Positions 51,005 to 53,510 of a stretch of DNA of 64,000 nt are shown one piece after another. The first letter of the stretch is position 1; each line of letters opens with the position of its first letter. Origin of the DNA: Escherichia coli (GTDB lineage: Bacteria; Pseudomonadota; Gammaproteobacteria; Enterobacterales; Enterobacteriaceae); assembly GCF_003334335.1 (NCBI RefSeq), contig NZ_QOWQ01000004.1; one strand, written 5' to 3'. The notes under the pieces were generated by a model. The model was not told where the DNA came from and ran no database searches. It was given only the letters and a program-made list of their open reading frames with translations. Both the position numbers and the translations under genes were made by a program.

Positions 51005-52303
51005 ATGACACTCACGCTCAATAGACAACTTCTCACCTCACGCCAGATTCTGGTGGCCTTTAGCGGCGGGCTTGACTCCACCGTTCTGCTGCATCAGTTG
51101 GTGCAGTGGCGGACGGAAAATCCGGGTGTCGCTCTGCGCGCTATTCATGTGCATCACGGTTTAAGTGCCAATGCCGATGCCTGGGTTACGCATTGCGAAA
51201 ACGTCTGCCAACAGTGGCAGGTGCCGCTGGTGGTCGAACGCGTACAACTTGCGCAAGAAGGACTGGGCATTGAGGCCCAGGCGCGGCAGGCACGTTATCA
51301 GGCATTTGCCCGCACCTTGTTGCCCGGTGAAGTGCTGGTCACCGCGCAACATCTCGACGATCAATGTGAAACCTTTCTGCTGGCGCTAAAACGCGGCAGT
51401 GGCCCTGCCGGGCTTTCGGCTATGGCGGAAGTCTCGGAGTTTGCCGGAACGCGGCTTATTCGCCCGTTGCTCGCCCGCACGCGGGGGGAACTGGTGCAGT
51501 GGGCGCGTCAGTATGATTTACGCTGGATTGAAGACGAAAGTAATCAGGACGACTCATACGATCGTAACTTTCTGCGCCTGCGCGTAGTGCCGTTATTGCA
51601 GCAGCGTTGGCCGCATTTTGCCGAAGCAACGGCCCGCAGCGCCGCACTTTGTGCTGAACAAGAGAGCCTGCTGGATGAACTGCTGGCAGATGATTTAGCA
51701 CACTGTCAATCGCCGCAGGGGACGCTGCAGATTGTGCCAATGCTGGCGATGAGTGATGCCCGCCGCGCGGCGATTATCCGCCGCTGGCTGGCAGGGCAGA
51801 ATGCACCGATGCCTTCCCGCGACGCGTTGGTGAGGATCTGGCAGGAAGTGGCGCTGGCGCGGGAAGATGCCTCACCCTGTTTACGTTTGGGCGCGTTTGA
51901 AATCCGACGCTATCAGTCGCAACTGTGGTGGATTAAATCCGTCACCGGGCAAAGCGAAAACATTGTGCCGTGGCAGACGTGGCTTCAACCGCTGGAATTA
52001 CCGGCGGGGCTGGGAAGTGTACAGCTTAATGCGGGAGGCGATATTCGCCCTCCGCGTGCAGACGAAGCGGTCAGCGTGCGTTTCAAAGCGCCAGGATTGC
52101 TGCATATTGTCGGGCGTAACGGCGGACGTAAGCTAAAGAAAATCTGGCAAGAGCTGGGCGTGCCGCCGTGGCTACGTGACACCACGCCACTGCTGTTTTA
52201 TGGCGAAACGCTGATTGCGGCGGCAGGGGTATTTGTGACGCAAGAAGGTGTGGCTGAAGGTGAGAATGGCGTAAGTTTTGTCTGGCAGAAAACGCTTAGT
52301 TAA
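51005..52303 (+). CDS. tilS: tRNA(Ile)-lysidine synthetase
   Basis: 432-aa ORF with PP-loop SGGLDS. Confidence 0.94.
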
Positions 52304-52308
52304 GTGAA

Positions 52309-52343
52309 AGCCGGATAAGACGCATCAAACGTCGCATCCGGCG
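52309..52343. repeat. REP (repetitive extragenic palindrome) element
   Basis: gccggataagacgc..gtcgcatccggc imperfect palindrome at the convergent tilS/rof junction. Confidence 0.6.
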
Positions 52344-52351
52344 AAAGTCAA

Positions 52352-52606
52352 TCAGGATTCGCTTACCACCACCGTACCGATTTCCGGGTGGCTAAAGCTG
52401 GTAATTTTATCCAGACGCAGCTCGCGGGTTTCGCCAGCGGCCTCGACGACCAGGTACTCCACATTTTTGCGGGAGACTAAATCACTGGCTTTTGCCTGCA
52501 ATTTTTCGCCATCTTTCAGCTCAAGTGTCAGCATTAAATGATGCTGGCAGGCGAGCTCAAGATTATCGTAATCATCACAATTGATTGGTTGATACGTATC
52601 ATTCAT
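52352..52606 (-). CDS. rof: Rho-binding antiterminator Rof
   Basis: ORF 52352..52612; start set at the second ATG ([21 protein letters not shown]...) for 84 aa; the upstream ATG at 52612 is an alternative. Confidence 0.85.
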
Positions 52607-52799
52607 TGACATAATCGCTCACCAGTAAGTTTGCCGCAGCGTATGCTGCTTTTTCCCTGACAGCCTCAGAAAGGGCGTCGTCGGCAGCCATTTCATTCAG
52701 CACTTTCAAAACGCAGCCCAGCGCGTCCGGAACGTATCCTAAGTCTCCGCTGGCGATTTCCGCGTACCGCTTGCGTATTAACTCACAATATTTTTCCAC
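52599..52799 (-). CDS. yaeP: UPF0253 small protein YaeP (function unknown)
   Basis: ORF 52599..52817 trimmed to GTG 52799 ([18 protein letters not shown]...), 66 aa; its stop overlaps the rof start. Confidence 0.8.
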
Positions 52800-52964
52800 A
52801 TGCCCTCCTGTCAGCACTCTGACTTAACCGTGGATGCAAGTCTAAGCCTACGAAGATAAACTCTGTTTCGCAAGGTGACTATACCACACTCATTTCTGCA
52901 ATATCAGCGCCGCAACTGCACGTATTCCGTTACAATGGCCTCCTGATTCGAAAGGAGTTTTCTT

Positions 52965-53510
52965 ATGGCGCTTAAAGCGACAATTTATAAAGCGACGGTT
53001 AATGTGGCCGATCTCGACCGCAACCAGTTTCTCGATGCCTCTCTGACGCTGGCGCGCCATCCTTCAGAAACCCAGGAGCGTATGATGCTGCGCTTGCTGG
53101 CGTGGCTGAAATATGCTGATGAACGTCTGCAATTTACCCGTGGTTTGTGTGCCGATGATGAGCCGGAAGCGTGGCTGCGTAACGATCACCTGGGCATTGA
53201 TTTGTGGATTGAGCTGGGGCTGCCGGATGAGCGGCGGATTAAGAAAGCCTGCACCCAGGCCGCAGAAGTGGCGCTGTTTACCTATAATAGTCGGGCGGCG
53301 CAAATCTGGTGGCAGCAAAATCAGAGCAAATGTGTGCAGTTTGCCAATCTTTCCGTCTGGTATCTGGACGATGAACAACTGGCGAAAGTAAGCGCCTTTG
53401 CCGATCGTACCATGACGCTGCAGGCAACGATTCAGGATGGCGTGATCTGGTTATCGGATGATAAGAATAATCTGGAAGTGAACTTAACCGCCTGGCAACA
53501 ACCTTCATGA
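52965..53510 (+). CDS. yaeQ: YaeQ-family protein (function unknown)
   Basis: 181-aa [24 protein letters not shown]... Confidence 0.88.

Follow-up and report, generated by a model that had tools for sequence, protein, structure and literature searches.

Translation starts and proposed translational coupling at the overlapping yaeP-rof gene pair of Escherichia coli

Few endogenous inhibitors of the essential terminator Rho exist, and Rof, one of them, contacts Rho directly through its N-terminus; because of this contact it is worth knowing which N-terminus is made and how it is tied to yaeP, the gene that overlaps the start of rof. On the Escherichia coli contig NZ_QOWQ01000004.1 (assembly GCF_003334335.1), both genes of the pair have more than one in-frame start codon. 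The locus thus raises the question of where translation of yaeP and of rof begins, and of how the two are linked.

A preliminary description of the window, the whole 64,000-nt stretch of DNA that was analysed, had placed rof and yaeP on the minus strand with overlapping ends, and named ATG at 52612 or 52606 as candidate starts of rof and GTG at 52817 or 52799 as those of yaeP. The gene identities, the strand and the overlap were confirmed by re-checking of the coordinates and by NCBIfam matches, and all four candidate codons lie exactly where they had been placed. Multiple in-frame start codons near a start are unremarkable by themselves; what exceeds chance here is the conservation of the junction between the genes. 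The comparison set comprised about 110 related bacteria, with a core of loci from 80 Enterobacteriaceae species whose start regions were aligned. The best explanation, which is likely as a whole, is a coupled operon in which yaeP would be translated from GUG 52799 and rof mainly from AUG 52612.

The locus and its genes

The locus is the well-known E. coli yaeP-rof pair, a bicistronic operon of Enterobacterales. Over approximately 52.3–53.0 kb the sequence matches E. coli K-12 MG1655 with 100% identity, and an 801-nt stretch with yaeP-rof was found in 5,425 of 5,426 complete E. coli genomes. In gene order, tilS (+) is followed by a REP element, rof (-), yaeP (-), a 165-nt intergenic region and yaeQ-arfB-nlpE (+), with the following features around the pair:

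End at 52303, plus strand: tilS, convergent with rof
52309–52353, no strand: REP element between the convergent rof and tilS, with sub-threshold Rfam naRNA4 (REP-derived) matches on both strands
52612–52352, minus strand: rof, 86 aa from ATG 52612, 261 nt in RefSeq/PGAP, stop codon 52354–52352
52799–52599, minus strand: yaeP, 66 aa, GTG start 52799–52797, TGA stop 52601–52599

An Rfam scan of the locus returned only sub-threshold REP-related matches, and REP elements have been reported to flank yaeP-rof on both sides (Said et al. 2024, PMC11018626).

Rof matches the NCBIfam model NF008636 (Rho-binding antiterminator) over its full length, residues 1–86 falling on profile positions 1–86 (181.5 bits, cut-off 117), and its sequence is identical to that of the E. 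coli protein in PDB 1SG5 and 8W8D. It is thus the same protein, at the same locus, as the known Sm-like Rof/YaeO (PF07073, NF008636; solved structures 1SG5, 8PTM and 8W8D), and only the annotated N-terminus differs between sources. The Rho-contacting residues of helix alpha-1, C10, Y13, D14 and E17 in 84-aa numbering, are present (motif NCDDYDNLE); these residues were named, and Rof inhibition of Rho described, by Said et al. 2024 (PMC11018626). For the identical protein, experiments by others have demonstrated Rho binding and inhibition of Rho-dependent termination. YaeP likewise gives a full-length match, to NF003436 (138.7 bits, cut-off 99), and is identical to the crystallised Shigella protein SF173 (5H1N). 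It does not differ from the YaeP/UPF0253 family (PF06786, NF003436; 5H1N), and PF06786 is precomputed on every YaeP homologue found.

The start of rof and the frozen junction

The junction of the two genes holds three ATG codons close to the yaeP stop codon, together with the following elements:

52599–52628, minus strand: junction block TTACTGGTGAGCGATTATGTCAATGAATGA, 30 nt, frozen at synonymous sites and almost invariant in 80 species
52618–52623, minus strand: GGTGAG, a putative Shine-Dalgarno-like element for rof, inside yaeP codons 59–61 and 6 nt before ATG 52612
52604–52606, minus strand: second in-frame ATG, candidate start of an 84-aa Rof and Met3 of the 86-aa form
52600–52602, minus strand: third ATG, overlapping the yaeP TGA (ATGA) and out of frame with rof

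The first ATG (52612–52610; open reading frame 52612–52352) lies 11 nt upstream of the yaeP stop codon and gives an overlap of 14 nt, and the second (52606–52604) lies 5 nt upstream and gives an overlap of 8 nt. The databases are in conflict over the resulting protein, with 86 aa in RefSeq/PGAP and in PDB 1SG5 (NMR) and 84 aa in PDB 8W8D (cryo-EM); Said et al. 2024 (PMC11018626) number the residues on 84 aa.

Conservation separates the two codons. ATG 52612 is present in all 80 Enterobacteriaceae species and, more distantly, in Serratia (L083), L087 and L088/L089, and rof has 86 codons in every one of the 80. ATG 52606 is kept in 78 of the 80, being ACG in L011 and L020, and it has become ATA in L088/L089; rof is otherwise intact in all of these. 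A protein search seeded with Serratia Rof extended the survey of residue 3; the N-termini in it are gene-caller products, and the sequences themselves show directly no more than that position 3 is not Met. Residue 3 was Ile, Thr or Lys in Serratia sp. DD3, an unclassified Serratia, Photorhabdus, Edaphovirga, four Erwinia/Erwiniaceae entries and P0356, and all of these entries retained Met1 and a conserved 10-residue motif. ATG 52606 has thus been replaced in about ten lineages with intact rof, and ATG 52612 was never lost. In lineages lacking Met3, the first ATG is the sole in-frame ATG upstream of the 10-residue motif, and it follows by parsimony that this codon would be the start in E. coli too. 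The comparison therefore strongly favours ATG 52612, giving 86 aa, over ATG 52606 as the conserved rof start, in line with RefSeq and the NCBIfam model of 86 positions.

The overlap of 8 nt given in the preliminary description holds for an 84-aa Rof started at 52606; as a reference state it gives way to the conserved arrangement of 14 nt. Its statement that the N-termini are not settled by sequence alone stands for a single sequence and falls for a comparison, which settles yaeP at GTG 52799 (see below) and leaves 52612 strongly favoured for rof.

The nucleotides around this start are constrained beyond their coding role. Synonymous diversity among the 80 species is 0–0.05 at yaeP codons 58–66, versus 0.15–0.7 over most of the remaining gene; seven consecutive yaeP codons are free of synonymous change (run-length permutation p = 0.0008), and the suppression extends through the first ten codons of rof. 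Within E. coli, 5,425 genomes carry the 101-nt junction at 99% identity or more. The codon of yaeP Tyr63, which supplies the 'AT' of ATG 52612, is TAT in 80/80 species, and those of Tyr12 and Tyr22 are TAC in 21/80 and 18/80.

The frozen block includes 16 nt upstream of ATG 52612, and with them GGTGAG (52623–52618), which is invariant in the 80 species and in Serratia (L083), L087 and L088. In L088/L089, these nucleotides are kept though the yaeP reading frame across them is shifted, which argues for a function at the nucleotide level, conceivably as part of a ribosome site. GGUGA could pair with UCACC at the 3' end of 16S rRNA, the known anti-Shine-Dalgarno sequence. The site would be a weak one, because its aligned spacing to ATG 52612 is about 17, longer than the optimum of 13–14 in the metric of the AUGUG start-site survey (PMC9841429). 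The published description of rof as being without a Shine-Dalgarno sequence (Said et al. 2024, PMC11018626) thus appears only approximately true, and a weak conserved Shine-Dalgarno-like element is probably the better description. A hairpin masking the rof start was considered and rejected, with a single-sequence fold at z = -1.1 and a 41-sequence consensus of -3.7 kcal/mol that carried no covariation.

Published initiation data bear on the choice as well. INRI-seq, an in vitro assay whose templates are truncated synthetic mRNAs (-30/+150), gave weak and similar peaks at the two rof ATGs, 8–12 CPM at 52606 and 7.9 CPM at 52612. For this reason, AUG 52606, the Met3 codon, may serve as a minor secondary start. 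In vivo, the Ribo-RET signal at the yaeP-rof locus is zero; the TetRP supplement holds no rows for yaeP or rof, and the TRAINSPOTTER N-terminomics tables hold no entries for either, the string 'rof' occurring there only inside other words.

A stronger form of this idea is that both AUGs are used in E. coli, yielding an 86/85-aa and an 84-aa Rof that differ in activity on Rho. How much of each is made would depend on the route of the ribosome, with entry directed by the Shine-Dalgarno-like element favouring 52612 and reinitiation after yaeP favouring 52606. The comparable in vitro peaks and the conservation of both ATGs in most Enterobacteriaceae are consistent with such a pair of proteoforms. 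Moreover, the Rof N-terminus is published to enter a cavity of the N-terminal domain of Rho, and an N-terminal His-tag to abolish activity, so that a difference at this end could matter. However, the second AUG is missing in many lineages, and a two-form system is consequently not a conserved requirement; in addition, the cryo-EM construct with two extra N-terminal residues still bound Rho, and two residues may not matter. On balance, two functionally distinct forms are unlikely.

Use of ATG 52606 as the only start is very unlikely. By that account, ribosomes that have finished yaeP at its UGA resume initiation at the closest in-frame AUG, producing 84 aa and the 8-nt overlap, and ATG 52612 is merely part of the yaeP codons for Tyr63-Val64. 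Its proximity to the yaeP stop, its conservation in 78/80 Enterobacteriaceae, an in vitro INRI-seq peak in five replicates and the function, both in vivo and in vitro, of constructs with 84-aa numbering all speak for the downstream codon. Yet Rof and ATG 52612 are intact in each of the lineages where ATG 52606 has been lost (L011, L020, L088/L089, Serratia, Photorhabdus, Edaphovirga, the Erwinia lineages and P0356), the TAT invariance of Tyr63 exceeds what yaeP coding needs, and the conserved GGUGA, at an aligned spacing of about 23, is too distant from 52606. The conserved start at 52612 remains the preferred reading.

The third ATG, at 52602, was absent from the preliminary description. Its open reading frame is not a conserved protein, because the length varies from 14 to 124 codons between species.

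A ribosome that reinitiates after the yaeP UGA meets ATG 52606 and the out-of-frame ATG 52602 before it meets 52612, an observation that weighs against the 52612 start.

YaeP: its linkage to Rof and its own start

Regarding the upstream protein, the literature consists of the SF173 structure paper, in which it is a dimeric bundle of helices, and of an overexpression experiment with a negative outcome, YaeP alone having no phenotype. In keeping with the preliminary description, the literature search gave no functional paper on YaeP. The family is small, with 36 clusters at 50% identity among 1.84 billion representative proteins. An AlphaFold2 model of YaeP (pLDDT 91.8) shows three helices, a small three-helix fold as in SF173 (5H1N), for which no informative structural neighbours were found.

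The two genes are coupled at 80/80 Enterobacteriaceae loci and in three more distant lineages, one of which is Serratia. This co-conservation, which the preliminary description had proposed to check, was already published (PMC11018626) and is reproduced here. Said et al. 2024 (PMC11018626) reported an overlap in every case in Enterobacteriaceae and no linkage in Vibrionaceae, yaeP and rof lying on different chromosomes in V. cholerae. In our set, yaeP occurs without adjacent rof in Vibrio-like and other lineages (L084, L085, L086 and L090–L093), and outside Enterobacterales it stands alone or upstream of a DUF4250 gene, the product of which had no NCBIfam match.

A small upstream gene overlapping a toxic downstream gene could suggest that YaeP is a dedicated partner of Rof, its antagonist or chaperone, in a toxin-antitoxin-like layout. 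Gene order and overlap do resemble type II toxin-antitoxin modules, which share with yaeP-rof two small overlapping genes and a downstream product that inhibits growth when overproduced; in line with this, Rof alone from strong promoters blocks growth, and yaeP-rof, or rof with its own promoter, is tolerated (published). In contrast to such modules, however, yaeP and rof lack obligate co-occurrence, as seen in the several lineages with yaeP and no neighbouring rof and in the separate chromosomes of V. cholerae (PMC11018626), and Rof is a regulator and not a classical toxin. With yaeP-rof in multicopy, the antitermination phenotype of Rof is still seen, and YaeP alone is without effect (published). 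In AlphaFold2, a linker fusion of YaeP and Rof gave five inconsistent models (pTM 0.44), with lower confidence in YaeP than for YaeP alone, and lent no support to a complex; the test is a crude proxy, built on a shallow paired alignment and read by pTM and model agreement. PADLOC returned nothing for the three proteins scanned, and PHROGs nothing for YaeP. A dedicated partnership is thus highly improbable.

The start of yaeP itself involves the following features:

52804–52809, minus strand: yaeP Shine-Dalgarno AGGAGG, its GGAG core at -9 to -6 invariant in 80/80 species
52815–52817, minus strand: upstream in-frame GTG, candidate start of a 72-aa YaeP, not conserved as a start
52778–52801, minus strand: 7-codon mini-ORF beginning at the out-of-frame ATG 52801 in cATGTG

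At the position of 52799, the codon is GTG in 78/80 Enterobacteriaceae species and ATG in the other 2/80. At the position of 52817 (-18), it is GTG, ATG or TTG in 25/80 and a non-start codon in 55/80, among them E. albertii with GTA and three species of Kosakonia, where the codon is a TAG stop. ATG stands at position 0 in Phytobacter (L026), where neither -18 nor -15 is a start codon, and in Enterobacter sp. Bisph1 (L035), where -18 is TTG and -15 is CTG. Distant YaeP homologues (64–69 aa, 38–64% identity) begin 0–2 residues from the E. coli Met/Val1. Because GTG or ATG is kept in 80/80 species, the GGAG is invariant, the -18 codon is not conserved and the homologue N-termini coincide, yaeP is, on this comparative evidence, taken to start at GTG 52799 (66 aa), the length that RefSeq/PGAP gives as well, and its start needs no revision.

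The GTG is embedded in cATGTGg (52801–52797), and the out-of-frame ATG 52801 that this context creates had been absent from the preliminary description. It is kept in 72/80 species, opening a 7-codon frame in 57 of them and an ATG-TGA in 15, and is probably a by-product of the yaeP start context. In the AUGUG start-site survey (PMC9841429, Table 2), yaeP is listed as an atGTG gene with the Shine-Dalgarno sequence AGGAGG, an aligned spacing of 12 and 'no ambiguity'. It shares the ATGTG-embedded start with the ambiguous AUGUG/GUGUG sites of that survey; unlike these, it is predicted to be unambiguous, and its out-of-frame AUG leads only to a 7-codon frame or a start-stop.

A start of yaeP at GTG 52817 or CTG 52814, for 72 or 71 aa as in some RefSeq records of other genera, is extremely improbable, although a strong in vitro INRI-seq peak (71.8 CPM, 5/5 replicates) is assigned to the CTG 15 nt upstream of the GTG, YaeP entries of 71, 72 and 80 aa are present in databases, and CTG, TTG or GTG occurs at -15 in 76/80 species: the -18 codon is a non-start in most species and a stop in three, positions -15 to -1 are the Shine-Dalgarno sequence and spacer of the conserved GTG/ATG start, Phytobacter has no start codon at either position, distant homologues carry no extension, and the in vitro mRNA begins just 30 nt upstream, the Ribo-RET signal in vivo being zero. 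The 72-aa alternative is, judged by conservation, not viable.

A probable coupled operon and its meaning

Upstream of yaeP, a consensus scan and the alignment of leaders point to the following elements:

52902–52907, minus strand: predicted -35 hexamer CTGATA (consensus scan); GCTGATATTGC conserved in most of the 80 species
52878–52887, minus strand: predicted extended -10 gTGgTATAGT (consensus scan); TATAGT in 78/80 species loci
52843–52877, minus strand: 5' leader segment of 35 nt directly after the predicted -10, nearly invariant across genera (49 distinct leaders aligned)

The 35-nt leader is single-copy in each E. coli genome and unannotated, and it is retained in Kluyvera although the next 27 nt are deleted. 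It may be where a signal controlling the operon acts. A structured RNA in the yaeP leader was considered and rejected, with z = -2.0 for the single sequence and no consensus structure; the alignment of 49 leaders gave no conserved fold of the 35-nt segment (-0.96 kcal/mol).

The conserved predicted promoter, with its extended -10, would drive a bicistronic yaeP-rof mRNA divergent from yaeQ-arfB-nlpE. On this mRNA, yaeP would be translated efficiently from GUG 52799 behind the strong AGGAGG, giving the 66-aa three-helix protein, and rof mainly from AUG 52612, ahead of the yaeP UGA, giving the 86-aa form; removal of Met1 before Ser2 is likely and would leave an 85-residue Rof. The ribosome-binding region of rof would lie inside the last yaeP codons, as the weak conserved GGUGAG. 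The weakness of this element and the frozen junction suggest that rof translation depends on that of yaeP, so that Rof synthesis would rely largely on ribosomes translating or finishing yaeP, that is, on translational coupling. The layout, with the downstream ATG 11 nt before the upstream stop, is identical in 80/80 species, and the overlap is kept in L083, L087 and L088.

Through coupling of this kind, the level of Rof, a toxic inhibitor of Rho, would stay low and scale with yaeP expression, which fits the toxicity of Rof from strong promoters. Work by others has established how Rof acts: it docks on the N-terminal domains of the Rho hexamer, obstructs the primary RNA-binding site and holds the ring in an open state. 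The demonstrable contribution of YaeP here would be that of an upstream cistron carrying the rof initiation region.

Coupled overlapping pairs are familiar, an example being the neighbouring yaeQ-arfB with its 4-nt ATGA, and yaeP-rof resembles them in having both genes on the same strand, the downstream start within the upstream end and a weak downstream Shine-Dalgarno element. It differs from the common pairs, which overlap by 1 or 4 nt, in its overlap of 14 nt (or 8) and in three AUGs within 11 nt of the stop.

A more elaborate scheme, in which internal entry at GGUGA and reinitiation would yield two Rof forms of unequal Rho inhibition, with the 35-nt leader acting as a sensor that turns the operon on, is distinctly unlikely. 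If two Rof forms were made in this way, translation of yaeP would be a tuning knob for global Rho activity.

Much of this system was already known from publications, namely both genes, their overlap, the coupling in Enterobacteriaceae, the REP elements and the AUGUG context of yaeP. What is added is small: the 86-aa start of Rof appears to be the conserved one, a weak conserved Shine-Dalgarno-like element probably precedes it, and a 72-aa YaeP seems not viable. The 86-aa RefSeq model of Rof would accordingly be preferable to the 84-aa model by which the structural papers number their residues, a modest refinement of annotation, real but ordinary, that leaves the understanding of the yaeP-rof system unchanged.

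Leader of the yaeP-rof pair

A highly conserved non-coding segment lies in the 5' leader of the overlapping yaeP-rof pair.

52843-52877, minus strand: 35-nt leader segment CACCTTGCGAAACAGAGTTTATCTTCGTAGGCTTA, immediately 3' of the predicted -10 element of the yaeP-rof promoter

This segment, which is single-copy and carries no annotation, is near-invariant in 78 of the 80 Enterobacteriaceae species aligned, and in Kluyvera it is retained while the adjoining next 27 nt are deleted. A conserved RNA fold was sought within the 35 nt and none was found. Possible roles for the segment are those of operator, sRNA target or attenuator.

Out-of-frame starts and other features of the reading frames

Out-of-frame ATGs are present at both ends of yaeP, and a terminator-like structure lies within it on the opposite strand.

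52778-52801, minus strand: out-of-frame ATG within cATGTG and its 7-codon ORF, enclosing the yaeP GTG start
52600-52602, minus strand: third ATG, overlapping the yaeP TGA as ATGA, out of frame with rof
52636-52649, plus strand: terminator-like hairpin with T-run, located 3' of tilS and the REP element, antisense inside yaeP

At the yaeP start, the out-of-frame ATG opens the 7-codon ORF (MWKNIVS) in 57/80 species, and in 15/80 it is followed directly by TGA (ATG-TGA), giving a start-stop pair. This AUGUG site is already included in a published table of such sites (PMC9841429). The ATG at 52602 opens an ORF of 22 codons in the window and of 14 to 124 codons depending on species, and because its length varies so widely, it does not encode a conserved protein, yet this ATG could act as a competitor for reinitiating ribosomes. 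The stem of the antisense hairpin consists of yaeP Ala codons that vary synonymously among species (diversity 0.46-0.7), and the hairpin is therefore probably a chance match. YaeP and Rof Pfam domains were also detected in single polypeptides of 124-147 aa (proteins P0155, P0162, P0165, P0206 and P0257). These few two-domain ORFs, seen only in ENA metagenome assemblies, probably stem from frameshifts or misassembly where the two genes overlap, not from genuine gene fusion.

Neighbouring genes and distant lineages

A similarly compact, coupled layout occurs on the opposite side of the common intergenic region.

53507-53510: 4-nt yaeQ/arfB overlap (ATGA), genes divergent from yaeP-rof

In one distant lineage (locus L084, 2501-2898; gene context proS-DUF533-yaeP), a DUF4250 gene of 63 aa takes the place of rof after yaeP, the stop and start codons of the two genes overlapping as TAATG, and yaeP is once more the upstream member of a closely packed small-gene pair. 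In the lineage of loci L088 and L089, YaeP is degenerate (43% identity, altered C-terminus), and the stretch from yaeQ to proS contains no gene call for arfB or nlpE. For yaeQ, the gene call gives a short product in L088 (91 aa; 1226-1501) but a near full-length one in L089 (186 aa; 941-1501). Both loci keep rof intact. The locus in this lineage may be undergoing decay, with rof preserved.
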